From the IMG/VR virus record IMGVR_UViG_3300005076_000001, positions 23,361 to 87,360 of that record: a stretch of DNA of 64,000 nucleotides, one strand, 5' to 3'. Position numbers and translations under genes: made by a program. The notes beneath the pieces are model-generated. The model was not told the DNA's origin and searched no databases. It worked only from the letters and a program-made list of their open reading frames with translations. The stretch comes from a virus. Taxonomy: Duplodnaviria > Heunggongvirae > Uroviricota > Caudoviricetes. Of this stretch, positions 4 to 60,342 are shown piece after piece; within the stretch, counting starts at the first letter, position 1; every line of letters starts with the position of its first letter.

Positions 4-540
4 TTGGCCTTTGGTTTGCCTAGTGAGGTTAATAGGAATCCCGATTACTCCGCCTCGTGTCTTATGGGACGAGGTAAATCAGGTAAGTATTATATCGCAC
101 ATGCTGAGAAGTTTCGAGGACTTGTTCACGATGTAACTCAAAAAATCATCAAGACGGCACACGAAGACGGTGATGACGTTGCTCTGCAAATCCCAAAAGA
201 CCCCGGTGGCGGTGGTAGATACATGCATGATGATATGAAACGTCGTCTGGCAGAGGAAGGGGTTTACGCGCACACAGAGGTTATCTCTGGGTGGAGTAGT
301 AAGGTACAGCGTTATATGCCTTTCTGTGCGATGGTGGATTTGGGTATGGTGCATGTTGTTCGTGGCAGTTGGAATGATGACTGGTTACAGGAGAATTTAC
401 ATTTCACAGGTGATAGGAATAAGAAGGATGACTTGTGTGACTGCACTGCATCTGCATTTAAGTTTCTCTCTAAACGTGCGACATTGCCAGTTTTTGAATT
501 CGCAGATATGAGTAGAGCATCAAATATTCCATCTCTGTAA
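4..540 (+). CDS. terminase large subunit, C-terminal nuclease domain (5' end cut by window edge)
   Basis: ORF open to window start; terminase-type C-terminal motifs (KDPGGGG, DDLCDCTASAF); sits immediately upstream of portal gene. Confidence 0.55.
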   Translation: MAFGLPSEVNRNPDYSASCLMGRGKSGKYYIAHAEKFRGLVHDVTQKIIKTAHEDGDDVALQIPKDPGGGGRYMHDDMKRRLAEEGVYAHTEVISGWSSKVQRYMPFCAMVDLGMVHVVRGSWNDDWLQENLHFTGDRNKKDDLCDCTASAFKFLSKRATLPVFEFADMSRASNIPSL

Positions 541-604: not shown

Positions 605-636
605 GAAGAAGCACTTAAAAATAAGTGCTCCTCTTC
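605..636 (+). promoter_or_regulatory. 5' UTR hairpin before portal RBS
   Basis: GCACTTA/TAAGTGC 7-bp stem plus GAAGA/TCTTC extension, AAAA loop, directly upstream of AAGGAGAA RBS. Confidence 0.3.
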
Positions 637-651
637 TTACAAGGAGAACAA

Positions 652-2118
652 ATGGCTGAATTAAATGAAGCCGCTCTTTCTCCCGACGACAATGTAATTC
701 CCCGAATTCGATTTTCAGATGTTGGTGTATTAGGGCTTAAAATTGCAGGTGATAGTGTTGTTGAGGAAGCTAGTCGTAAAATGCGCTTCCCTGAATTCTA
801 TCGCATTGTAGATGAAATGAAAAAAGATGCCACAATTGCAACAGGCACTAATTTCATTCGCACAATGATTAGCGATGCTGAATGGCACGTTAAATGCAAC
901 CCTAATTATTCTGATAAAGCTAAAGAGCGTTCTAAATTCCTCATGCAATGCATGAACGATATGGAACATTCTTGGGCTTCATTCATTTCGGAAGTTACAT
1001 CCTATCATGAATATGGATATGCAATCCATGAGAAAGCATTCCGCTATCGTCTTAAGCGAAACGGTAGTAAATATAATGATGGGCTTGTCGGATTAAAGAG
1101 CCTCAACCCTAGAGCACAATCCACCATCATCAAACATCATTTTGATGAGACAGGTAGTAAGCTTGTAGCTGTTACACAATCTACAGCCAACTCCTCTACC
1201 AACCTTCTTAGCGATAAGCTTAAAGAGAGTGAAATTAAGATTCCTCGTGAACGCTTTCTTCTCTTTACATGCGACAGCCGACTAAACAACCCTCTTGGCA
1301 ATTCTCCTCTCAAATCCATCTATCTAGCTTGGCAAACACGTCGCTCTATTGAAGAGCAAGAGCTTGTTGCCTTGGCTCGTGATTTGAATGGTATTCCGTA
1401 TGTTTCTGTGCCTGCTGCCATTATGTCAGATAATGCTTCTGACGGACAGAAAGCACAATACGAATATGCTAAGAATATGGCTCGTAACCTGCACGCAAAT
1501 AGGCAAGCAGGTATTGTGTTCCCTTCTGACGTTGATGAACAAACGAAGACAAAATACTTCGATATTAAATTGTTGTCAACAGAAAGTGGAAGTACATACG
1601 ACGTAAACAAAATTATTGAGCGTATCAATAACCAAATTCTAACAGCTCTTTCTGCTGACGTTCTCACAATTGGTCAATCTGGTACAGGTTCTTTTAGCCT
1701 TGCAGATAGCAAAGTGAGTTTGACAGAGTTTGCAATTCGTCATCGTCTGAAAGAAATTAAAGACGTTCTCAACCATGACCTCATTCCTGCTTTGTGGAGA
1801 ATGAACGGTTGGGATATGGACGAATTGCCAGAGTTTGATTTTGAAATGCCGGACACCATCACATTGTCTGAATGGGCTAAGGCTGTACAACAGCTTGCTG
1901 CTACATCTAACATTGAGCGTACACGTTCCTTCTTCAACATGGTGAACAAGAAACTTGGTTTGCCTCTTGAAGCCGATGACAAGGAAGTTGATTGGGAAAC
2001 GGTGGTAGTGGATATGGCCTCACGTTCTGGCGATGGTATGGCTGCTGGTATGAATAGTGGAACATCTTCTGGTGCTTCCACTTCTGACAACAGTTCCACC
2101 AACCTAGACAAAGCTTAA
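652..2118 (+). CDS. portal protein
   Basis: ~490 aa ORF between terminase and prohead protease; ATG 652 preceded by AAGGAGAA (ORF track extends upstream to 625). Confidence 0.65.
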   Translation: MAELNEAALSPDDNVIPRIRFSDVGVLGLKIAGDSVVEEASRKMRFPEFYRIVDEMKKDATIATGTNFIRTMISDAEWHVKCNPNYSDKAKERSKFLMQCMNDMEHSWASFISEVTSYHEYGYAIHEKAFRYRLKRNGSKYNDGLVGLKSLNPRAQSTIIKHHFDETGSKLVAVTQSTANSSTNLLSDKLKESEIKIPRERFLLFTCDSRLNNPLGNSPLKSIYLAWQTRRSIEEQELVALARDLNGIPYVSVPAAIMSDNASDGQKAQYEYAKNMARNLHANRQAGIVFPSDVDEQTKTKYFDIKLLSTESGSTYDVNKIIERINNQILTALSADVLTIGQSGTGSFSLADSKVSLTEFAIRHRLKEIKDVLNHDLIPALWRMNGWDMDELPEFDFEMPDTITLSEWAKAVQQLAATSNIERTRSFFNMVNKKLGLPLEADDKEVDWETVVVDMASRSGDGMAAGMNSGTSSGASTSDNSSTNLDKA

Positions 2119-2135: not shown

Positions 2136-3476
2136 ATGGCACACGAAGCATTCCGAGTAATGCAGAGTTTGTACGACACGCCTCATCTCATCTCTCAAAC
2201 CAGCCTTAATGCGATTGTCTCATATCTTGAAGATCGTGGCAACGGTGTTAGGGCTGAATCTGACGAAGAATCTCCTCGTTCCACATACGGCTACAACCCA
2301 GACACACAGATTGGTATGTTGTCTATTTCTGGTGCTCTGACAAACAAAACTACAGGCATGGAAATGATGTGTGGTGGTGTTAGCTACCAATCACTTGAAG
2401 AGCAAGCTGAAGAGTTGCTTGAAGCTGGTGCTAAGACACTTGTGCAGATGGTTGATAGCGGTGGTGGCGAAGCTTACGGTTGTTTCCAAACAGCCAATCG
2501 TATCCGAGAGATGGCAGATGAATATGGCGCTTCCATCATCAGTTATGTAGATGGGACAGCAGCCTCTGCTGCTTATGGCCTTATTGCCAAGAGTGACAAA
2601 ATCATTCTTAACCCAGATGCAGGTGTTGGAAGTATTGGTGTTGTTATCAAACTGCAAAACGTAGCTAAAGCAAAAGAACAGGCCGGTATTCAAGAGAGTT
2701 TTGTTTACGCTGGTGCTAACAAAATCCCGTATGCAGAAGACGGCTCCTATCGTAAAGAGTTTATTGCTGATTTGCAAGCTCGTGTAGACAAGATGTATGA
2801 ATCCTTTGCTACTCATGTTGCAGAAGGTCGCTCTCTGTCTCTGGAAGCCGTTAAAGCAACAGAAGCAAAAATGTTTATGGCTGATGAAGCTATTTCCCTT
2901 GGCCTAGCAGATGAAGTGATGACTACACACCAGTTTGCTAACGCCCTTGCCGACATGGCGAGTAATGTTAAACAAGAAAGGAAGTCAACAATGTTTGACA
3001 AAATTCTAGGCAAGGCTAAGGCAGAAGATGCTGGCGTCGTAGCCGAACTGGAGGCAAAACTCACCCAGATGGGCGAACAATTCGCTCAAATGGAAGAGCA
3101 ATTTGCTCTGGCAAAACAATCTCTGGAAGCTCATGTAGCTGACGCTGTTGCTCGTGCAGAACAAGCAGAAGCTGTGCTGAAAGCAAAAGAAGAAGCTGAA
3201 CAAGCTAAAGCACAGGCTGCTGAAGAAGCCCGTCTGAGTGCTCGTAAAGAAAAGCTCTCTGCTGCCGTAGGCGATGAGAAAGCTGTTGAAATGTTTGAAG
3301 CTCTGAAGGCCCTGCCGGATGCTGCTTTTGACAGTGTTGTTGATTCTATGTCGGCTGCTGTTGACCAGAAAAACGCACAAATGGATGAAATTGGCTTCAC
3401 TGTAGAACAAGCCTCTACCACACCTGATGTACCACACTTCTCTCAATATCTGAAAATTAAGAAAGAGGATAAGTAA
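2136..3476 (+). CDS. prohead serine protease (S49/ClpP-like) fused to Ala/Glu/Lys-rich coiled-coil scaffold domain
   Basis: Protease core YVDGTAASAAYGLIAKSD...GVGSIGVV resembles S49/ClpP active-site region; C-terminal 150 aa low-complexity AEAK coiled coil typical of scaffolds; lambda C/Nu3 position. Confidence 0.65.
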   Translation: MAHEAFRVMQSLYDTPHLISQTSLNAIVSYLEDRGNGVRAESDEESPRSTYGYNPDTQIGMLSISGALTNKTTGMEMMCGGVSYQSLEEQAEELLEAGAKTLVQMVDSGGGEAYGCFQTANRIREMADEYGASIISYVDGTAASAAYGLIAKSDKIILNPDAGVGSIGVVIKLQNVAKAKEQAGIQESFVYAGANKIPYAEDGSYRKEFIADLQARVDKMYESFATHVAEGRSLSLEAVKATEAKMFMADEAISLGLADEVMTTHQFANALADMASNVKQERKSTMFDKILGKAKAEDAGVVAELEAKLTQMGEQFAQMEEQFALAKQSLEAHVADAVARAEQAEAVLKAKEEAEQAKAQAAEEARLSARKEKLSAAVGDEKAVEMFEALKALPDAAFDSVVDSMSAAVDQKNAQMDEIGFTVEQASTTPDVPHFSQYLKIKKEDK

Positions 3477-3478
3477 TT

Positions 3479-3877
3479 ATGACTAAACTCGCTACTCGTG
3501 GCGCTAAACTGACTGGCGTTCTGGCATGGGAATTTGAGCCGGAGGTTGGCTACAGCCGCTCCACCGCTACCGTAACTGTTGAAGCAGGTATGGACGTAGG
3601 TGCTGTGGTTGTTCTGGCATCTGGTAAATACAAATGGGTTGCTGCTGCTGATGTTGCAACTCTGGCTGCCGATGTTCGCGTTGTTATTGACCCGACCATC
3701 ACCGACGTAGGCACTGGCGATAAGTCGCTGACCCTGCTGGGTAACGAACTGGCTGTTGCTCCTGCAATGGTTACTCGTGCTGGTCTGAAATTCAAAGACG
3801 CTCTGTCTGCCGGTCAAATCGACACTGTTATCACTAAACTGAACGCAAAAGGCATTCGTGCCGTAGCACGAGTGTAA
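3479..3877 (+). CDS. head decoration protein (lambda gpD-like)
   Basis: 132 aa between scaffold and major capsid gene; VLAWEFE...GAVVVLASG similar to gpD core; highly-expressed-gene codon usage. Confidence 0.5.
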   Translation: MTKLATRGAKLTGVLAWEFEPEVGYSRSTATVTVEAGMDVGAVVVLASGKYKWVAAADVATLAADVRVVIDPTITDVGTGDKSLTLLGNELAVAPAMVTRAGLKFKDALSAGQIDTVITKLNAKGIRAVARV

Positions 3878-4611
3878 TGTCCCGTAGTATTGTCTATTGG
3901 GCGCATCTTCCACAGCACACCGATATAACAAAAGAAGGCTATGTTGGTGTGTCTAGGAAGAACCTCTCTAAAAGAGAGCAACAACACAGGCGAGTCTCTG
4001 TAAAAGGCAATAATGTCTTCCATAAAGCCATTAGAAAATACAGAGAAGATATAGTCTTTGATGTTGTTGTCATTGCCTCTTTTGATATTTGCTTGAAGAT
4101 CGAAGCTGCATTACGTCCTGATATTTTCATAGGTTGGAATATGGCAAAGGGAGGCGGTTCTTCTCTACAACCTGTCAACAAGGCACCGTTAAGTCCTGAG
4201 ACAAAGAAGAAAATCTCCGAAGATCACAAAGCAAACGCACAGTTTTATGCCGACCAAGCAAGGCGTGTTCACACAGGAAGAAAACGGAGTGACGAAACTA
4301 AGAGGAAAATTTCATCCTCTTTGACTGGACGCACTTTGAGCGATAACACCAGAAAACTTATATCTGAGAACCGCACACCTCCTAAGAAATGGGAGCACCC
4401 TAACTCTGATATAAAGATGTGGGCTGTTGCCGATGAGCTGTTTGCTTTATGGGTAAACAATGACAAGTGCGGGAGGCAAAGGCTTGCAGAACTCTTCGGA
4501 GTCGGTAAGTACGCAGTTACAGCTATTCAAAAGTGCTTTAGAGAGGGATGGAACCCCTTAGATGATTCCGACTGGCAACACTTCAAATCAAATTACAAGG
4601 AAATAAAATGA
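3877..4611 (+). CDS. GIY-YIG homing endonuclease with three NUMOD3 repeats and C-terminal HTH
   Basis: N-terminal IVYWAHL...GYVGVS...R...H...N GIY-YIG motifs; NUMOD3-like TKKKISEDHK, TKRKISSSLTGR, TRKLISENR; start and stop overlap flanking capsid-module genes; AGA/AGG/ATA codon usage unlike neighbours. Confidence 0.8.
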   Translation: MSRSIVYWAHLPQHTDITKEGYVGVSRKNLSKREQQHRRVSVKGNNVFHKAIRKYREDIVFDVVVIASFDICLKIEAALRPDIFIGWNMAKGGGSSLQPVNKAPLSPETKKKISEDHKANAQFYADQARRVHTGRKRSDETKRKISSSLTGRTLSDNTRKLISENRTPPKKWEHPNSDIKMWAVADELFALWVNNDKCGRQRLAELFGVGKYAVTAIQKCFREGWNPLDDSDWQHFKSNYKEIK

Positions 4612-5648
4612 ATATTCGCTCCTACCTCAACTCTTTTAAAACTGACGAATTTACCGATCAAATCAACCGCGTTGAAAACCAATATGGTTACATCAACTCG
4701 CGTGACTACTTCGGCAATCTGCGTTCCACTGGCTCCACCTCTATTGTTTTCGATGTAAACAAGCACAATATCACCCTGCTGCCGCAAGTGAATCGTGGCG
4801 ATCATTCGTTTACTGACGGTAAAGAACGTGATGTTGAAACTTTCGCTCTGAAACTGGCCTACTTCAAACACCATGATCGTCTGACTAACGAAGACATTCA
4901 AGATTGGCGTCAGCCTGGTAGCATGGATGAAGAAACCTACGCTCGTGCATTTGCTGAAAAAGTAACTGACATGCGTATGGCTGCTGACCAGACCCGTGAA
5001 TACATGAAACTGCAAGCTTTCAAGGGCGTGTTCAAAACCCCTGATGGTAAAGTTGTTGCTGATATGTTCAACGAGTTCGGCGTTACTCAGAAAACTGTAG
5101 ACTTCGCTCTGGGTACTGCTTCCACTAACGTAGACAGCAAAATCCAAGAACTGAAACGCTATATCGCTTCCAACATCAAGCAAGGTGGTAGCATCAACGG
5201 TGTTGAAGTGCTGGTTGACCCATCCTTCTACGACAAGCTGATTTCCCATCCGAACATCAAAGCTGCTTACCAATACTACCTGAACTCTGGTGCTCAACGT
5301 CTGCGTGACGACCTGTCGCAATACATGAGCTGGGGTGTAATGGACTTCTTTGAGCATCGTGGTGTTCGCTTTATCTCCTACGACTCCACCTTCAACCTGC
5401 CGAACGGCACCACTGAAGTTGGTATTGCTACCGATAACGGTCATGCCTACGGTCTGGGTACTCGTGACCTGTTCCGTCAGTATGCTGGCCCATCCAACAA
5501 ACTGTCTGCTGCTAACCAACCTGGTCAAGAGATGTTTGTTCGCACCTATCTGGATGAGCGTGATGAGTATGTAGATTTCGAGCTGGAAATGGCTCCGCTG
5601 TACTTCTGCACCCAACCTGCTTCTCTAGTGAAATTGACAACAAACTAA
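4608..5648 (+). CDS. major capsid protein (lambda gpE-like, HK97 fold)
   Basis: 346 aa; position after decoration gene; lambda E-like length and sequence character; strongly biased codon usage. Confidence 0.75.
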   Translation: MNIRSYLNSFKTDEFTDQINRVENQYGYINSRDYFGNLRSTGSTSIVFDVNKHNITLLPQVNRGDHSFTDGKERDVETFALKLAYFKHHDRLTNEDIQDWRQPGSMDEETYARAFAEKVTDMRMAADQTREYMKLQAFKGVFKTPDGKVVADMFNEFGVTQKTVDFALGTASTNVDSKIQELKRYIASNIKQGGSINGVEVLVDPSFYDKLISHPNIKAAYQYYLNSGAQRLRDDLSQYMSWGVMDFFEHRGVRFISYDSTFNLPNGTTEVGIATDNGHAYGLGTRDLFRQYAGPSNKLSAANQPGQEMFVRTYLDERDEYVDFELEMAPLYFCTQPASLVKLTTN

Positions 5649-5747
5649 GCAATAAAACAACAAGCAGCCTGTGTTCGCATGGGTTGCTGTTTTCTGCTAC
5701 AAAATGTCTCTTCTTCTTTCGAGGAGATATTCTATAGGAGAATTTAC

Positions 5748-6170
5748 ATGGCTTTAGATTTTACAAAAGCCGTTGACAGAGTGAGGTTGAAGGTTGGCGA
5801 TACCAATGAGCTTCAAATCTTCCCTGACACTCTTTATCAGGCTGTTCTAGATAAGAACAATGCTGACGAAGCTGCAACGGCACTTGAAATGGCTCAATAT
5901 ATTCTTGGGTATATTAGTCAACATGGCTTCAGGGAACGTAGTGGAGCTTATGAAGTTTATGGGCGCGAGTGGCTGCAAAGCTACATGGATTTCCTTAAAA
6001 CATTCCTCTTGTCTAGTGGTACAGCTGCTGCTTTGAATGCCAAGATTTACGCTGGTGGTATTAGTATTTCTGACATGGAACAGAATGACCTAAACCCAGA
6101 TAACAACATTGTCCCAACAACAGATTTTGATGAAATGTTTGAGACGTATAATGGCAATCTTCGTTTCTAA
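5748..6170 (+). CDS. head completion / head-tail adaptor candidate
   Basis: 141 aa ORF from ATG 5748 with AGGAGAA RBS, directly downstream of capsid gene. Confidence 0.35.
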   Translation: MALDFTKAVDRVRLKVGDTNELQIFPDTLYQAVLDKNNADEAATALEMAQYILGYISQHGFRERSGAYEVYGREWLQSYMDFLKTFLLSSGTAAALNAKIYAGGISISDMEQNDLNPDNNIVPTTDFDEMFETYNGNLRF

Positions 6171-7551: not shown

Positions 7552-8841
7552 ATGAGTAAGGTTTCGGATTTTATCAATATTCAAATTAGCCGTCAAACAC
7601 AATCTGTTTCTCGTGCTAGTTTCTCTGTGCCGATGTATCTGGCTGAACATGCTGGCTTTGCAGATCGTGCTCGCACATTCTCTAGCCTTGACGGTGTAGC
7701 AGAACTGTTTGACAGTGCTTCTCCTGTGTACAAAGCTGCTGAGAAGATGTTTGGTCAAGAGCTTGTTCCACAATCCATTATTATTGGTCGTAAAGCTGTT
7801 GCTGGTGGCACTATCAGTGTGTCTAGTGTTCTAGCCTCCTACACCTACAAACTCACTGTGAATGGTCAAACCATCACCTTCACATCTGATAGCACCCCTA
7901 CTGCAACTGAAATTGTTACTGGCCTGAAAGCTGCTTTCGATGCTGCTACTCCTGCTATTGTTGGTGTAACAGCCACCATCTCTGGCACTACTCTTGTTCT
8001 AGCTGCTTCCGGTGATTGGAGCGTTAAAGCTGGCACCAATCTGTCTCTGGTGTACGATGCATCCACTGAAACTTGGGTTGACGCCCTGAATGCTGTAGCT
8101 GCTGTTAATAGCAATTGGTATGTCTTTGCTGCTAACACTCACGCTAAAGCCGATCAGCTTGCGCTGGCTGCTGCAATTGAAGCACGCAAACAACTCTACT
8201 TCACTTCGACTGCCGATAGCACAGCTAAAGCCACTACCGTAACAGACGTAGGTCAAGCCCTGAAAGACCTCGGCTATGATCGTACACTGGTTATGTGGTC
8301 TGCTGTTGCTGCCACAGAAGAGCCTGAAGTTGCTGTTATGGCTAAGTTTAGTCAATACACCCCCGGCTCTGCAACCCTGATGTACAAGCAATTTGCTGGC
8401 GTCACTGTACAAGCTTTGACCGACAACGAAGTGGCTAACCTGAAAGCTAAGAACTACAACGTATACGAAACTGTTGGTGGCGTAGCGATGTTCTCTGATG
8501 GCGTCATGGCAAGTGGGGAATTTTGTGACACCATGTTCGTCAGTGACTGGTGCGAAGCGCGTATCCGCGAACGTGTATTCTTCAAGCTGGTGAATCTGTT
8601 GAAGCTTGGTTATACACGCGCTGGTGCTGCCATCATCGAGAATGAAATTCGTGCTGTGTTCACAGAAGGTGTTAGCTCTGGTGCATTTAGTCCTGATGTT
8701 CCTGCCATTATCTCCGTACCTGACCCTGTAACCGTTGACCCCAACCTGCGTGCTCAACGTAAACTGGAAGGTATTACGTTTGAATTCCGCCTTGGAAGTG
8801 CGGTGCATCGTGTTGGGATTAAAGGAATTTTGACCGTTTAA
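7552..8841 (+). CDS. tail sheath protein candidate
   Basis: 429 aa protein followed by 174 aa tube-like protein, chaperones, tape measure and Mu-type baseplate genes. Confidence 0.5.
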   Translation: MSKVSDFINIQISRQTQSVSRASFSVPMYLAEHAGFADRARTFSSLDGVAELFDSASPVYKAAEKMFGQELVPQSIIIGRKAVAGGTISVSSVLASYTYKLTVNGQTITFTSDSTPTATEIVTGLKAAFDAATPAIVGVTATISGTTLVLAASGDWSVKAGTNLSLVYDASTETWVDALNAVAAVNSNWYVFAANTHAKADQLALAAAIEARKQLYFTSTADSTAKATTVTDVGQALKDLGYDRTLVMWSAVAATEEPEVAVMAKFSQYTPGSATLMYKQFAGVTVQALTDNEVANLKAKNYNVYETVGGVAMFSDGVMASGEFCDTMFVSDWCEARIRERVFFKLVNLLKLGYTRAGAAIIENEIRAVFTEGVSSGAFSPDVPAIISVPDPVTVDPNLRAQRKLEGITFEFRLGSAVHRVGIKGILTV

Positions 8842-20001: not shown

Positions 20002-21987
20002 ATGGCAAATCTTACACCAACAGCAATTTGGGGTGATGTGTTTCAGATCGAAAAAAACACACCTGTTCTTGGTGGCGCAGGAGGTGTTGCGAACCGGCAG
20101 GCACAAGAACTAGCGAATAGGACACAGTTTCTTTACGAGAATATGGGGGAGGAATTTGCCCCTACCTACGCAGCCCTCCGTGCGTATAACGGCAGTGCCA
20201 CTCGGATGCAGGTTGGGGGCCGCACTAACTATTTTGACGGCGCAGGCGGTATTGTTGTTCGTACTGGTAGCCAGCCTGACAACGACGGCACTGTGTGGGT
20301 AGATGCGCTTGGCCGCAGCTGGGAGCGTCAATTTAGTGGTCCGGTAGATATTCGTTGGTGGGGCGCAAAAGGCGGGAACTATAATTCTTCCCCGGCATTG
20401 CAGGCTGCATACAATTACCTTGTATCTACAGGAAACGGTGGAACCATTCTAGTCCCACCTGCACCTGATGGCTATCGATTGGATACCCCACTTAACTTCA
20501 CTGACGCGTGGGTTCCAATTACTATTAAGGGGATGTCTGGGACAAATATCCCAAGCAATCGACCGAATAACTTCCCCTATGGTTCGCTGTTCTGGGCAAA
20601 CACTGGCGGGGTGTGTATTGATATTGCAGGCCGATGCAATTTTGGTTTGGAAGATATTGTTATCGACACGTTCGATACTACAAAATGCCCTACCCCATCC
20701 AGAATTGGTGTGCTTGGCGCTCGTACTACTACGAGCCAAGATAACCAAAACCACCACTTTAAAAACGTGGCGATTTTCATGAAGTCACAACGCCCCAGCG
20801 CCCCGTCCATCGCGCACTATGCTTATGGTACAGAGCTTGGGTATTACGAGAACTGCTGGTACTTTGCCGACCTTCCGGCAGCGTACTGCTTGGCTAACGT
20901 ACTCGGCGTAACGTCTCCACACCGCACACTTGTGGCAAGCGGCGTTTCCGCTACTGCGAACACCGGTAATGGCTGCCGTTTTGTGACAGTTTCCCCCTCT
21001 GACCCTGCCATCTGGTTTGACGGAACTTACGACAACAGCTTTAAGCAGTCATACTTCTACAATGAAAGTGGCGTATTCACCAATCGCCCCGCGCTGCTTC
21101 TAACTGGCAATAACCACAGTTTGTCGGTTGATACTTTCCAGTGCGAAGAGTTTGCAAACGTCTTTGAGCAGTATGGCTCTTTGTTCAACTCCAAGATTAA
21201 GGGGTTTGTTACAAGCACTAGCTACGCAACAGCAGCTAGCGAAATTGGTCGTTTCACTGGCGCGGCGATTACTGTTGATAACAATTTCGAGATTGAAACA
21301 GGCGGAATTGGCGTAGCTTATGAAGCGTACAAAGGCACCACTGCGGCAAGTTCTGTTTTTGCTAACAACAAGTTCAAGTTAAACCAAACTGGCGGATTTA
21401 ATGTATCTTTTGGTGCTAGCAGTAATGTCGGAAATTTGCACTTTGACAAATGGACGGATGACGTGTCCGTGTTGTTGGGTGGGCTAACCAACTCGACAAA
21501 CATCACTGTAAACGGCAAACAAAAAACAATTGGTGCTGTGAATGTTTCTGAGGGGTTTGTTTTCAAGTATGAAGCCAAGCCAAATAGCACGGCCAACTCA
21601 ATTTTGTCTTTTACCGTTCCAAATGGCGATATTGCATATTGTTATTTTGTTGATTACGTTATTAACTCCAGCGCAAAAGAAGCAGTTAAAACTGGCAGAG
21701 TTCAAGTTTCTGTCGCCAGAAAAACTGACCAAGCCATGGTGCTTACCGCTGAGAAATTGCATGAAAACACACTTCAAGCAGCCGGATCAGAAAGCATAAG
21801 CACTACCTTTTCGGTGTCAGGTATTTTTGATCCTGCAACTGGTACGCAGTATGCTTTTCTAACGTGCAACGCCAACTCTTCTGCTGGTGGAACATCCTAT
21901 ATTCGTGGTAGTGTTAAATCGCTAGGCGCAAGCCTACTAAACTCTCCAATTTACGGAAATCAAAATATAATCATTGGAACGGTATAG
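20002..21987 (+). CDS. tailspike / tail fibre with pectate-lyase-like right-handed beta-helix (probable depolymerase)
   Basis: 661 aa; conserved fibre N-terminal anchor; WWGAKGGNYNSSPALQAAYNYL...GGTILVPP pectate_lyase_3-like; body ~55% GC vs ~42% genome. Confidence 0.6.
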   Translation: MANLTPTAIWGDVFQIEKNTPVLGGAGGVANRQAQELANRTQFLYENMGEEFAPTYAALRAYNGSATRMQVGGRTNYFDGAGGIVVRTGSQPDNDGTVWVDALGRSWERQFSGPVDIRWWGAKGGNYNSSPALQAAYNYLVSTGNGGTILVPPAPDGYRLDTPLNFTDAWVPITIKGMSGTNIPSNRPNNFPYGSLFWANTGGVCIDIAGRCNFGLEDIVIDTFDTTKCPTPSRIGVLGARTTTSQDNQNHHFKNVAIFMKSQRPSAPSIAHYAYGTELGYYENCWYFADLPAAYCLANVLGVTSPHRTLVASGVSATANTGNGCRFVTVSPSDPAIWFDGTYDNSFKQSYFYNESGVFTNRPALLLTGNNHSLSVDTFQCEEFANVFEQYGSLFNSKIKGFVTSTSYATAASEIGRFTGAAITVDNNFEIETGGIGVAYEAYKGTTAASSVFANNKFKLNQTGGFNVSFGASSNVGNLHFDKWTDDVSVLLGGLTNSTNITVNGKQKTIGAVNVSEGFVFKYEAKPNSTANSILSFTVPNGDIAYCYFVDYVINSSAKEAVKTGRVQVSVARKTDQAMVLTAEKLHENTLQAAGSESISTTFSVSGIFDPATGTQYAFLTCNANSSAGGTSYIRGSVKSLGASLLNSPIYGNQNIIIGTV

Positions 21988-23294: not shown

Positions 23295-23483
23295 TTAGGC
23301 AAACAAGCCAAGAATGCTACCGAGAGGGGCAAGAACAATACCTGCTGCTCGTGCAATCTGGAGTGTATCAAACAGAGGCAAGGCTTGAACAAATGCAACG
23401 ATGTTCATAATCCAACCAACAAAAGCCGCAATCCAGAGACCCACCACAACCAAACCAAAACCAGCACCAAACAGTTCTTTCAT
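23295..23483 (-). CDS. small membrane protein (2 TM)
   Basis: 62 aa hydrophobic ORF with RBS. Confidence 0.35.
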   Translation of the reverse strand: MKELFGAGFGLVVVGLWIAAFVGWIMNIVAFVQALPLFDTLQIARAAGIVLAPLGSILGLFA

Positions 23484-31543: not shown

Positions 31544-32101
31544 TTAATCTCTAGACAATATATCTCTCAACAGCTTCCTACGCTTTGCTTCACTATTGAT
31601 AGCAACACCAGTATACCCTTTTTCTTGAAGGTAGGCAAGCACCTTTGCCTTGTTTTTTAACATGTCAATAATGGTTGCCTCAGTCTTAGCTTCCTCAAAG
31701 GACACACCAAGACGCTGCCCAAGACTTACAATTCTGTGACACCCCTTGCATAAAATCCTCAAATCACTATCAGCAACCACTAAAAGCTTTTCTACACAAG
31801 ATCGTACATCATCCAGAGATGTAAGGGAAGCTGTTTCTTCAAGGATGTGGTCAACTTCCACTTCGTTCTGCTTAAAAACTTGCTGGCAAATCTCACATTT
31901 GTACGCGTTAACAAAAGGGAAACGTTTCATTGAACGTGGGTTTGTGTTTGGAACACGCATTGCCCTCTTCTTCAAATGCTTTAGACGTACAGGGGATTTA
32001 GACCACCCTTTCCTAATAATCCCCTTAATCCACGAGAAGAAGGCAGAACGTGTCTTCCAAACATCTTGGTTTTCTGCAACGATGAGGTCGATTTTATCCA
32101 T
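31544..32101 (-). CDS. HNH endonuclease
   Basis: CEICQQ...VEVDHI...CKGCHR HNH Zn-finger nuclease signature; ATG 32101 with GAGAAGG RBS. Confidence 0.55.
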   Translation of the reverse strand: MDKIDLIVAENQDVWKTRSAFFSWIKGIIRKGWSKSPVRLKHLKKRAMRVPNTNPRSMKRFPFVNAYKCEICQQVFKQNEVEVDHILEETASLTSLDDVRSCVEKLLVVADSDLRILCKGCHRIVSLGQRLGVSFEEAKTEATIIDMLKNKAKVLAYLQEKGYTGVAINSEAKRRKLLRDILSRD

Positions 32102-33080
32102 ACAACACCTTCTCATACGCTTCACTGAACGTCACTGCATCATCTTCCCAGCGACGCATACGTGCCATATCCCACATTTCAGAGGCAACATATTTCCAAT
32201 CAATCACAATATCATCTCCTCGCCAACCTTGAATTGTTTTTGGCTCTGGGTAGAGTGTTTTGAATATTTGCTCGATTGCAACAAACGCTTCTTTATCATT
32301 CTGCAAGCCACGCAGAATGTCATAAGCCTTCACATCACCCCATTTTACATCAGAGAAGCAACTGGCATTATAATTGTCACTCGTATCTCCGCTACACATT
32401 TGAAAATAGAAGAACAAACGTCCAATACCCCTCACCTTACCCTTACTATCTCGCCACAATTTACCAAACCAATTGCAATTACGAATACCAAGTTCAGGAT
32501 AGTTTGGATTGAACAAGAAGATTGGGCAACCGTTATAATCCTTGTCAACCCCGATCACAACATGGTCTTTCTTCTTGTACGCTTCAATTACACACCAATC
32601 GTCAGCCTCAAGAGAGGTGCATTCAATCGGTTTATATTTAGCCTGCAAATATTGTGTTACATCATCCAAGTATAGAGGTTTTAGCAGGTCAGCACGTTGC
32701 CCTTTGTATTTCAATAGTGTGCTACGTTCTACACGAAAACTATCACCTTTACCAATGAAAGAGACATAGTTGTCAGCGTTAATAGCTTTCAAGCCACCTT
32801 CAAACATCATTTTGGCTGTGTGTAAAACATTCTCGATTGGTTCTGGTGTTTGCACATCAATGATTTCAAAATCGTCTGCAACAAACGGTGATGTACGTCC
32901 TTTGTTAAGCTCTCCAAGCCAACCACCATCTTTGTTCTTGCCACGACCCCAAAACTCTGTCCTGTTTGCAAAAGGGTGTTCTCTACCACTTTGTTTGTGA
33001 ATAGCAACGATGGAGCGTTTCTCTCCCACACCTGCTGCTGCATACTTGATAAAATCTAAATCGACAATAGCTGTTGTCAT
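32094..33080 (-). CDS. 5'-3' exonuclease / flap endonuclease (FEN, T5 D15 / T4 RNase H-like)
   Basis: N-terminal MTTAIVDLDFIKYAAAG; EADDWCVIEAY; VIGVDKDYNGC motifs of PIN-like 5' nucleases; start ATG 33080 with AGGAGAACC RBS. Confidence 0.7.
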   Translation of the reverse strand: MTTAIVDLDFIKYAAAGVGEKRSIVAIHKQSGREHPFANRTEFWGRGKNKDGGWLGELNKGRTSPFVADDFEIIDVQTPEPIENVLHTAKMMFEGGLKAINADNYVSFIGKGDSFRVERSTLLKYKGQRADLLKPLYLDDVTQYLQAKYKPIECTSLEADDWCVIEAYKKKDHVVIGVDKDYNGCPIFLFNPNYPELGIRNCNWFGKLWRDSKGKVRGIGRLFFYFQMCSGDTSDNYNASCFSDVKWGDVKAYDILRGLQNDKEAFVAIEQIFKTLYPEPKTIQGWRGDDIVIDWKYVASEMWDMARMRRWEDDAVTFSEAYEKVLYG

Positions 33081-49529: not shown

Positions 49530-50048
49530 TTATTTCTCCATTCGTTTGTAAAACACATGTCCAGATTCAACATACATCCTTTTCATCTTACTTGCCCATG
49601 TTGGACGTACATTCTTGGCATGAAAGAACGTAATGTTGCTGTAATTGCTTTGTCTATTATGCATTGCTCTTCCAAGAATGTCAAGCACAATTTGTATGTT
49701 CTCCTCGTACATTGCATTCTTCGTAAAGCTATACCCTGCTTTGTAGAAGGAAAATTGTGCCTTCTCTCTTAGAATGTCACAAACATGTTTATTCTTCTCT
49801 ATTGCCCTGTTAAGAATGACAACAGCAATTTTCTCCCTGTCTTGTTTGCTCTCTAGCTGCCCTTCAGAGAACAAGGCAGAGGAGAGACAAGCCACACTCC
49901 CCCTCTGTGTCATTGCATGAACATAAGCGTTGTTTGCATTTGCATTAGAAGCAAAGAACATCAGCAAAGACAAAGCAACAATGTAATATAAAACAATACG
50001 AATTATTCTTCTCCTTTTCTTACCAAGTAGTTTGCATGTGTAATCCAA
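49530..50048 (-). CDS. cell-wall hydrolase, SleB/CwlJ (Hydrolase_2) family, with N-terminal signal/SAR-like segment
   Basis: GSVACLSSALFSEGQLESKQDREKIAVVILNRAIEKNKHVCDILREKAQFSF matches Hydrolase_2 core (AVA.VILNR...QFS); N-terminal KKRRRIIRIVLYYIVALSLLMFFASNANA. Confidence 0.6.
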   Translation of the reverse strand: MDYTCKLLGKKRRRIIRIVLYYIVALSLLMFFASNANANNAYVHAMTQRGSVACLSSALFSEGQLESKQDREKIAVVILNRAIEKNKHVCDILREKAQFSFYKAGYSFTKNAMYEENIQIVLDILGRAMHNRQSNYSNITFFHAKNVRPTWASKMKRMYVESGHVFYKRMEK

Positions 50049-58932: not shown

Positions 58933-59768
58933 TGCTATACAACATCCTCAAACAACTTCAAGAAACACCGAGTACAAACGATAAGCTTTCTATTTTGAAA
59001 GCAAACAAAGACAATGAGACATTGAAAGAATACATGCGTCTTGTTTGTTGCCCTTCTGTCTCGTTTTATATTACAGCAAAGACGTTTCCTGTTGTATCTA
59101 AGATAGGGACACATACATTCCAGTCTCTCATGAATGCTGGGTATTCTCTTGGTACAAAAGAACTTTCTCAACGTCATGTTACAGGACAGGCAGCAAAGAA
59201 TTTTATTGTTGCTACAATGGAAGACCTTGATGAAGAGCACCAACAACTGTACAAAATGCTTCTTCTCAAGGACATTCGTGCGAAAGTGGGGGCAACACTT
59301 GTGAATAAGGTGTGGCCTAATTTGTGTGTCTCTGTTCCATATCAACGCTGCTCTCTTCCAGATGAAAAGACATTGGAGAAGTTTAAGAATGGAGAACAGT
59401 TCTTTGTTCAACTTAAATACGATAGTTCTTTTGCATATGCGTTCAAGTCTCCACGTGAATTTGCCCTTATTACAAGGGCCGGGTCACGATACCCCAAAGA
59501 AATTGCAAGTATCATTACAGAAGACATTCCAGAGAACTACGTGTTGATGGGTGAGTTAGAGGTTGTTTACAAAGGGGAAGTCCTTTCTAGAAAAGATGGC
59601 TGTGGGGTGCTAAATAGCTTGTTGAACGGAGGGCCGTTACCTTCTGGTTGTGGGCTTCAATTAACTGCGTGGGATGTTGTCAGTGTTGAAGAATTTTCAA
59701 AAAGTAAGAGTGACAAACCGTACTGGGAAAGACTCAACCTGCTGAGGGGGATGTTCACGAATGAGTGA
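58932..59768 (+). CDS. ATP-dependent DNA ligase (T4 gp30-like), N-terminal fragment (through motif IIIa)
   Basis: MLYNILKQLQETPSTNDKLSILKANKDNETLKEYMRL ~ T4 ligase N-terminus; VNKVWPNL; motif I region QLKYDSSF; LITRAGSRY; ends where T4 ligase continues. Confidence 0.7.
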   Translation: MLYNILKQLQETPSTNDKLSILKANKDNETLKEYMRLVCCPSVSFYITAKTFPVVSKIGTHTFQSLMNAGYSLGTKELSQRHVTGQAAKNFIVATMEDLDEEHQQLYKMLLLKDIRAKVGATLVNKVWPNLCVSVPYQRCSLPDEKTLEKFKNGEQFFVQLKYDSSFAYAFKSPREFALITRAGSRYPKEIASIITEDIPENYVLMGELEVVYKGEVLSRKDGCGVLNSLLNGGPLPSGCGLQLTAWDVVSVEEFSKSKSDKPYWERLNLLRGMFTNE

Positions 59769-60342
59769 TAATTTACACTGGGAAGATTATTTCTACTACG
59801 ACGAAACAAGTCCTAGTTGTCTAAGGTGGAAAGTTTCTGTGTACAGTGGATGTGGGTTAAAAACACAGAATGTCAGAGAAAACCAAGAAATCCAGCATAA
59901 AGATCGTGAAGGGTATTTTGTTGTTGGGTTGATGAAGAGGAGACATAAAGTACATAGAATAATCTATGAGATGTTCTACGGAGAAATCCCAGAGGGCATG
60001 GTGATAGACCACGTAGATAGAGACAAAGAAAACAACAAGATTGAGAATCTGCGCGCAGTTTCATGCAAAGTTAATTCCAGAAATACTAAAAGATACTCCT
60101 CCAACACGTCTGGGGTGACAGGGGTTAGTTTGCAAACCTCTTATAAGTCTTCAGGAAATTACACAGCGTATGTTGCAAATTGGACAGATTTAGAAGGAGT
60201 AAAACACGGAAAGTCATTTTCCATCCTTAAATATGGGGAAGAATTGGCATTGAAATTGGCCGAGGAGTATAGACGCAGTAAGATTGCGGAGCTTAATGCG
60301 CAAGGAGCTGGGTACAATGACACACATGGGGATGTGCTATGA
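59761..60342 (+). CDS. HNH_3 homing endonuclease with AP2 domain, inserted between ligase halves
   Basis: IDHVDRDKENNKIENLRAVSCKVNSRN HNH_3 motif; AP2-like GVTGVSLQTSYKSSGNYTAYVANW...ELALKLAEEYRR; own SD GAGGGGGA; ATG overlaps ligase-N stop. Confidence 0.75.
   Translation: MSDNLHWEDYFYYDETSPSCLRWKVSVYSGCGLKTQNVRENQEIQHKDREGYFVVGLMKRRHKVHRIIYEMFYGEIPEGMVIDHVDRDKENNKIENLRAVSCKVNSRNTKRYSSNTSGVTGVSLQTSYKSSGNYTAYVANWTDLEGVKHGKSFSILKYGEELALKLAEEYRRSKIAELNAQGAGYNDTHGDVL

Follow-up and report, generated by a model that had tools for sequence, protein, structure and literature searches.

An Ounavirinae-like phage with a free-standing GIY-YIG homing endonuclease gene wedged between its decoration and major capsid genes

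Here we describe an open reading frame (ORF) wedged between two head genes in a 64,000-nucleotide (nt) stretch of a tailed phage genome (IMG/VR record IMGVR_UViG_3300005076_000001, positions 23,361 to 87,360; Caudoviricetes), hereafter the window. The ORF (3877..4611, plus strand) starts with ATG, encodes 244 amino acids (aa) and corresponds to a free-standing GIY-YIG homing endonuclease gene. It is flanked on the left by the gene for a gpD-like head decoration protein of 132 aa (3479..3877, plus strand) and on the right by the lambda gpE-type major capsid gene (4608..5648, plus strand; Pfam Phage_cap_E, E = 2e-68). The decoration gene resembles lambda gpD weakly (HDPD, E = 0.0037, below the Pfam cut-off; PHROG 'head decoration', 0.0018), and its homologue in Pseudomonas phage vB_PsaM_M1 is annotated as a head decoration protein. 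At the left junction, the decoration stop TAA (3875-3877) and the endonuclease ATG (3877-3879) have one base in common, forming TAATG (3875..3879, plus strand; window letters 3872-3882 = gtgTAATGtcc). At the right junction, the capsid ATG (4608-4610) and the endonuclease TGA (4609-4611) form an ATGA start/stop overlap (4608..4611, plus strand; window letters 4605-4612 = aaaATGAat). Both overlaps can be read directly in the sequence, and the gene coordinates proposed in a first-pass annotation, made from the letters alone, are exact. The capsid ribosome-binding site AAGGAAA (4597-4603, plus strand) falls within the final endonuclease codons (YKEIK-stop; region 4597..4611).

The encoded protein consists of a GIY-YIG catalytic domain (aa 1-95; 3877..4161, plus strand) carrying IVY at 5-7, YVG at 22-24, R33, H37, E76 and N88, a linker (4171..4377, plus strand), and a C-terminal helical DNA-binding-like domain (aa ~176-244; 4402..4608, plus strand) with a helix-turn-helix (HTH) and a conserved GWNP..D..W motif. 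The linker holds three NUMOD3 repeats of the minor-groove-binding type, whose cores were located by regular expression as SPETKKKIS (aa 106-114, nt 4192-4218), SDETKRKIS (aa 138-146, nt 4288-4314) and SDNTRKLIS (aa 155-163, nt 4339-4365). NUMOD3 (Pfam PF07460) matched the whole protein (E = 3.5e-6, 27.3 bits against a gathering cut-off of 20.4) and returned three stretches on the linker fragment aa 99-175 (E = 3.4e-9, 36.9 bits), in agreement with the repeat number first proposed. With its only cysteines at aa 72, 198 and 219, the protein lacks a CxxC pair, and the linker has no zinc finger.

We regard the GIY-YIG assignment as solid despite a silent Pfam model, because it draws on a PHROG match, on homologues that themselves carry the Pfam domain, on invariant residues and on a profile match to a solved structure. 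PHROG 314 'homing endonuclease' matched the protein with E = 3e-21. Many of its 44 database homologues carry PF01541 (GIY-YIG) together with PF07460, and PF01541 is present in homologues at 28-46% identity. In a 32-sequence alignment, Y7, Y22, G24, H37, E76 and N88 are invariant and R33 is at least 90% conserved; R33, H37, E76 and N88 are the equivalents of the I-TevI catalytic residues R27, H31, E75 and N90. A search of the PDB with the single sequence gave no match and the family profile was needed: built from 32 homologues, it matched the I-TevI catalytic domain 1MK0 (E = 3.6e-11), with the profile glutamate (E76) aligned to residue 75, which is alanine in that mutant. The AlphaFold model (mean pLDDT 87) has strands at 4-10, 22-26 and 60-67, places the GIY and YIG motifs within the first ~25 residues on a three-stranded sheet, and its catalytic domain matches the GIY-YIG alpha/beta fold. 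The nuclease motif that hidden Markov models had been expected to reveal is thus supported by the family profile and the structure prediction, and not by PF01541 itself. No paralogue of the endonuclease was found within the window, and an exact-sequence look-up of the protein retrieved nothing on record elsewhere.

We surveyed 84 loci encoding relatives of the capsid protein, each with at least 900 nt of upstream sequence. In 79 of them the endonuclease is absent from the decoration|capsid slot, and their decoration and capsid genes are separated by a gap of 15-52 nt (median 29). A member of the endonuclease family occupies the decoration|capsid slot in 4/84 loci, namely the window, L007, L015 and the distant L080, and L008, on a truncated contig, is a fifth occupied case. 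The empty site is seen in two uncultured relatives, L001, on an 88-kb IMG/VR contig, and L009, the sole locus obtained from a metagenome-contig scan with the capsid protein; the capsid proteins of both are 90% identical to that of the window. Their decoration and capsid genes are separated by an identical 17-nt spacer, tcgAAGGAAAataataaATG, and the empty junction continues from the decoration gene as ...TAAtcgaaggaaaataataaATG..., also given as ...GCTCGCGTATAATCGAAGGAAAATAATAAATGCTGATTCGCGATTACGTAAATTCTTTTAAAACGACCGAGTGG..., with a stop codon, a ribosome-binding site and a start codon held in the spacer. A DNA-pattern scan of viral contigs returned L001 again and nothing further. The nearest cultured phage, vB_PsaM_M1 (Ounavirinae, seawater; capsid protein 77% identical), was found by protein search and also has an empty junction, with a 35-nt spacer; megablast of window positions 3000-6000 against 50,697 phage records gave no match, and the window phage thus lacks a close relative in culture.

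The occupied junctions are alike. The TAATG start junction recurs in L007, L008 and L015, the 3' end of the endonuclease gene in L015 reads cacAAGGAAAattaaATG, and in all occupied genomes the gene runs into the resident capsid ribosome-binding site AAGGAAA and ends there, so that this site now codes for the last residues ..YKEI. The shared start and the end inside this site place the insertion point directly after the decoration stop. These comparisons identify the decoration|capsid endonuclease gene as a sporadic insertion with a clean empty site. They bear out the first-pass proposal of a mobile GIY-YIG/NUMOD3 insertion, whose empty site was to be sought in related phages: neither conserved presence nor codon usage co-adapted to that of the neighbours (see below) is found. 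In L080, whose capsid protein is only 31% identical, two members of the endonuclease family lie in one head module (2808..3506 and 5315..6004). One of them occupies the decoration|capsid slot and again shows the ATGA overlap, which implies that this slot was invaded independently or anciently.

Two pairs of relatives provide evidence for mobility. The occupied L015 and the empty L009, which come from separate samples, have capsid genes that are identical at nt 43-1042 and differ by 12 mismatches, all at the start of the gene (nt 6, 9, 18, 21-26, 36, 39 and 42), and their decoration genes differ at 13/399 positions. Along with the insertion thus comes a recoded patch of 42 nt at the capsid start, which has sharp limits and changes that are mostly synonymous. 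L007 and L008, both occupied, are ~3% diverged (80 mismatches over 2,555 nt) and share a mismatch-free tract of 916 nt that starts 117 nt before the end of the decoration gene, takes in the endonuclease gene and reaches 71 nt into the capsid gene; by a rough estimate, a run of this length at 3% divergence has a chance of ~1e-12. Both patterns are those that homing with co-conversion produces, and co-conversion of flanking DNA has been documented for T4 endonucleases (PMC2988022). The ratio of non-synonymous to synonymous divergence (dN/dS) of the endonuclease gene between L007 and L015 is 0.16, indicating purifying selection.

The same comparisons point to a candidate target. The first 45 nt of the capsid gene (4608..4652, plus strand) form a hyper-divergent patch, and we consider it a candidate recognition or immunity region. 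With a patch boundary that was picked after viewing the alignment, the window differs from L007 at 22/45 positions, against a gene mean of 16% (permutation p = 5e-5), and from the empty L001 at 15/45, against 15% for the gene (p = 0.004). Differences between the three occupied and both empty alleles are confined to decoration positions -6 and -3 and capsid positions +6, +21, +36, +39 and +42. Because the co-conversion tracts end and the fixed or hyper-variable differences lie there, we infer that the recognition or cleavage site falls between about -120 and +45 relative to the junction and most probably takes in capsid codons 1-14. Alternatively, cleavage might occur in the 3' part of the decoration gene.

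The first-pass annotation had also noted a contrast in rare codons between the endonuclease gene and both neighbours, and the counts agree with it. AGA and AGG make up 12/19 arginine codons of the endonuclease gene, compared with 0/6 in the decoration gene and 0/20 in the capsid gene; ATA makes up 6/15 isoleucine codons, compared with 0/5 and 0/14; and CTG provides 1/14 leucine codons, compared with 11/12 and 21/24. Window-wide, AGR accounts for 25% of arginine codons and ATA for 10% of isoleucine codons, and the excess in the endonuclease gene is significant relative to the window as well (binomial p = 4e-4 for AGR and 2e-3 for ATA), and the gene ranks 3rd of the 74 window ORFs of at least 100 aa in rare-codon content (7.4% vs 1.7%). 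Its GC content of 42.7% equals the window mean (42.9%), and the anomaly therefore lies in codon choice only, not in base composition. We conclude that the codon contrast is real and marks a weakly expressed or selfish class of gene rather than a recent arrival.

We rejected codon usage as a dating tool, given the unremarkable GC content and the rare codons of other weakly expressed ORFs; rare codons are equally expected in any weakly expressed selfish gene and are not a clock. A cell-wall hydrolase gene (Hydrolase_2, E = 5.8e-10; 49530..50048, minus strand) uses 7.6% rare codons, as high a share as the endonuclease gene, which shows that mobile genes are not alone in using rare codons in this genome. 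Two further genes in the rare-codon top ten of the window are themselves endonuclease candidates. One (59761..60342, plus strand; rank 6/74) combines HNH_3 (E = 2.5e-19) with AP2 (E = 1.4e-8) and is a candidate second homing-endonuclease-type gene of a different class. The other, a 192-aa ORF (31544..32125, minus strand) with AGR at 50% of its arginine codons, has a weak HNH match (E = 0.0013, below the cut-off) and may be a third endonuclease gene.

The signals around the junctions suggest how the gene might be expressed. The capsid gene has a Shine-Dalgarno sequence 6 nt upstream of its ATG, and its initiation region is predicted to be unstructured (-4.6 kcal/mol, z = +0.7). No Shine-Dalgarno sequence was found upstream of the endonuclease start, and this, together with a start coupled to the decoration stop, implies weak, coupled translation. 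Judging from codon bias, the decoration and capsid genes may well belong to the most highly expressed operon, as first suggested. A terminator-like stem-loop of 11 pairs followed by a T-run lies directly after the capsid stop (5663..5688, plus strand), suggesting that it terminates the highly expressed transcript. Around the endonuclease gene, scans for promoters and terminators gave counts at or below shuffled expectation, and a promoter-like site at 4582-4609 was not significant. A 10-bp RNA hairpin, GCAUUCGUGC/GCACGAGUGU (3852..3875, plus strand; -18.6 kcal/mol for its 66-nt context, z = -2.5), stops one base short of the endonuclease ATG and resembles the hairpins described upstream of some T4-type endonuclease genes. 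We rejected it as a regulatory element, as it is missing at the equivalent positions in L007 and L015, and it is probably incidental.

Taken together, we consider the ORF, with a probability of roughly 0.85, to be a free-standing homing endonuclease gene of the GIY-YIG (I-TevI-like) class that is intact and probably active. During co-infection with a relative whose junction is empty, the enzyme would bind a long asymmetric site at or adjoining the junction and make a double-strand break there; on the model of I-TevI and the T4 Seg enzymes, binding would fall to the HTH and NUMOD3 modules, and the tethered GIY-YIG domain would cut nearby. Repair of the break by recombination from the endonuclease-carrying genome would then copy the 0.73-kb gene and short flanking tracts. 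With its site split by the insertion and its first ~14 capsid codons recoded, the carrier genome would itself be immune. The gene would be transcribed with the late head operon and poorly translated, because it has no Shine-Dalgarno sequence, is coupled through TAATG to the decoration stop and is rich in rare codons. Such weak translation might limit the damage to head-operon expression, and the capsid gene would keep its own ribosome-binding site, now within the final endonuclease codons.

Several observations weigh against this reading. PF01541 does not match the protein even at E ≤ 10, with either the whole sequence or aa 1-98, and the match to TIGR01453 'group I intron endonuclease' (E = 7.5e-11, 42.5 bits) stays under the curated cut-off of 56.05. 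The extent of the capsid patch was chosen post hoc, and the hyper-divergence of the capsid 5' end could come partly from a loosening of constraint, either on the N-terminus of the capsid protein or on the region of translation initiation, and not from immunity of the target site. The window endonuclease is only 54-55% identical to the nearest same-site copies, those of L007 and L015, and for the window phage no empty-site relative with otherwise near-identical flanks was found, so that recent homing is demonstrated only for the sister alleles. Transfer with flanking DNA is likewise seen in those alleles and not in the window's own. The word 'recent' in the first-pass annotation is accordingly borne out for the sister pairs (L015/L009 and L007/L008) and not for the window copy. 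The association of the family with the site is old, and this particular insertion could be of any age.

It is against this background that a long-resident, vertically inherited endonuclease has to be considered, one that no longer homes, is domesticated or tolerated, and has empty sites that represent losses. A domesticated protein might, for example, bind DNA to regulate the late head operon, much as I-TevI represses its own promoter. The divergence of the window copy from those of L007 and L015 is similar to that of the portal (65% identity) and protease (47%), its GC content is that of the window, the window, L007/L008 and L015 copies form one clade, and the capsid ribosome-binding site embedded in the endonuclease 3' end would disfavour deletion. 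Nevertheless, the catalytic residues are all intact, the sister pair shows a dN/dS of 0.16, and the transfer tracts of the sister alleles are unmistakably recent. Moreover, the 79/84 empty relatives have mutually similar spacers, and losses would have to be both frequent and precise. We therefore judge such a history unlikely.

The remaining alternatives concern what kind of nuclease this is. The best curated match, TIGR01453, and the 'intron-associated endonuclease' annotation of the vB_PsaM_M1 homologue would both suit an intron-encoded enzyme, with a group I intron splitting a fused decoration-capsid gene or the capsid gene itself. We rejected this hypothesis and give it practically no credence: an Rfam search of the window turned up no group I intron, every relative encodes decoration and capsid in two separate, complete ORFs, the empty site is merely a 17-nt spacer, and the ORF takes up the insertion from its TAATG to its ATGA, so that intron RNA would have no place in it. 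The sole Rfam match at the gathering threshold, a 19-nt HIV-1 splice-donor motif (21070..21088, minus strand; 30.3 bits against 30, E = 0.023), is almost certainly due to chance, and no tRNA gene was found in the window. The nuclease might instead serve mainly as a weapon or defence, cutting co-infecting phages or satellites to the benefit of the phage (marker exclusion) or degrading host DNA. Such a role overlaps mechanistically with homing; T4 Seg enzymes exclude T2 markers and marker exclusion is documented in T4 (PMC2988022), and the high-identity island formed by the decoration and capsid genes (described below) is what hitch-hiking of flanking capsid alleles would leave. However, no defence-family match was obtained beyond generic GIY-YIG structures (the PADLOC library was not searched), and a long sequence-specific DNA-binding architecture, with three NUMOD3 repeats and an HTH, is unlike an enzyme for bulk DNA degradation. 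As a main function, this seems very improbable.

Among known systems close to this gene, I-TevI (the T4 td intron endonuclease; PDB 1LN0/1MK0; TIGR01453 family) is intron-borne, whereas the window gene lies outside any intron or intein; the window protein lacks the linker zinc finger and has three NUMOD3 repeats, and its C-terminal domain has the GWNP..D..W motif in common with further phage endonucleases (PHROGs 25551, 7504 and 26163) and is unlike the I-TevI HTH in sequence. T4 SegF, SegD and SegG, like the window protein, are products of free-standing GIY-YIG genes that have settled between genes which are conserved, essential or structural, those for capsid and decoration proteins included; the neighbours of segF are soc and 56, and those of segD are 23 and 24 (PMC2988022). 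Five free-standing endonuclease ORFs of T4 overlap the upstream ORF and are without a translation initiation region (PMC2988022). The T4 Seg genes and the window gene are alike in overlapping the upstream ORF, in having no translation signals of their own, in their sporadic presence and in the co-conversion of their flanks (PMC2988022). In contrast, segD is antisense whereas the window gene is co-oriented with the capsid operon, and the window phage is Ounavirinae-like, with about 87 kb, not T4-like as are the Seg carriers. A tblastn search with the endonuclease against the 50,697 phage records (E ≤ 1e-5) hit 30 records, none from T4-like phages; the gene works like a Seg gene without being a close Seg homologue. 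'Seg-like', as the first-pass annotation had it, is apt for the free-standing arrangement; in sequence the protein is nearer to the I-TevI family (sub-threshold TIGR01453), with no match to T4 Seg.

Closer at hand is UZS00918.1, the 'intron-associated endonuclease' of vB_PsaM_M1 (OP714164), which belongs to the same family (30% identity over 95% of the length). It has the same domain layout, including the C-terminal GWNP domain, and lies in the head module in the same orientation; unlike the window gene, it sits in the portal|protease slot. It has metagenomic homologues, P0004-P0010. Homing endonuclease genes are known to cluster near capsid genes (PMC10448857), and the 'HEG islands' of Barth et al. 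2023 (PMC10448857) likewise place an endonuclease beside capsid genes in a high-identity block. That study covers T5orf172 and IPA-HNH endonucleases, whereas the window gene is of the GIY-YIG class.

The head-morphogenesis module opens at the window start with the terminase C-terminus (4..540, plus strand), a Mu-type portal (625..2118, plus strand) and an S49 protease (2136..3476, plus strand), and head-completion, sheath and tube genes follow the capsid gene. Within head modules of related phages, the endonuclease family occupies at least four intergenic slots, always co-oriented: terminase|portal (5 loci), portal|protease (about 10 loci), a position about 1.3 kb upstream of the capsid gene (2 loci), and decoration|capsid. 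The decoration and capsid genes (3450..5650) form an island of 84-89% DNA identity to L001 and L007, whose neighbours are at 65-78% or unalignable, and synonymous divergence (dS) in the island is 0.5-0.7, against 1-2.4 for portal, protease and tail genes. In these genomes the decoration and capsid proteins are 88-95% identical to those of the window, compared with 65% for the portal and 47% for the protease. The decoration protein is 95.5% identical to that of L001, where its gene abuts the capsid gene, and only 41% to that of vB_PsaM_M1; the ratio of its non-synonymous divergence to L001 over that to vB_PsaM_M1 is 0.06, which makes the gene an outlier in this relative-rate comparison, as nine further genes for head and tail proteins have ratios of 0.2-0.9. 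An island of this kind fits the picture of nuclease genes that lie at borders of genetic exchange (PMC10448857). However, its similarity to L001, which has no endonuclease, is just as high and codon bias may lower divergence, which makes endonuclease-driven exchange only a possibility; strong codon bias and general mosaicism are alternative explanations.

Other parts of the module vary as well. For the C-terminal third of the S49 protease gene (3001..3450), whose product is an Ala/Glu/Lys-rich coiled-coil tail and likely a scaffold-like region, no similarity to L001, L007 or vB_PsaM_M1 was detected at the DNA level, whereas its flanks are similar, and the 47% identity of the protease to that of L001 indicates a mosaic break just upstream of the decoration gene. 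L007 has an extra 233-aa ORF without Pfam match just downstream of the capsid gene (7942..8643), L011, L013 and L018 have DUF723 proteins there, and the window and L001 have no extra ORF at this position; on the upstream side of the terminase, L001, L011 and L013 carry AP2-domain genes. Overall, the whole head module appears to be an insertion hotspot.

We tentatively suggest, as an idea we hold more doubtful than probable, that the endonuclease lineage is a cassette carrying its own 'immunity patch', i.e. the recoded first ~14 capsid codons, and that the wider family radiated over at least four head-module slots in an ~85-90 kb Ounavirinae-like clade, driving the exchange of decoration and capsid alleles. 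If true, this would explain why the decoration protein is 95% identical between the window and L001 when portal and protease are so much more diverged, and the hyper-variable capsid start would record an arms race between endonuclease recognition and target escape in an essential structural gene.

The element itself is real, and an ordinary selfish gene of a well-known kind, namely the free-standing GIY-YIG homing endonucleases of phage structural operons. Capsid-adjacent examples are already well documented, and this one changes nothing conceptually. For annotation, the lesson is that the Pfam GIY-YIG model misses this subfamily. What public metagenomes add is natural before/after pairs, which define the empty site to the nucleotide and leave a candidate target of about 65 bp over the decoration stop, the spacer and capsid codons 1-14. 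The family is therefore a possible source of new long-site nuclease specificity, and a convenient case in which to follow how GIY-YIG enzymes choose their sites in structural operons and how phages escape them.

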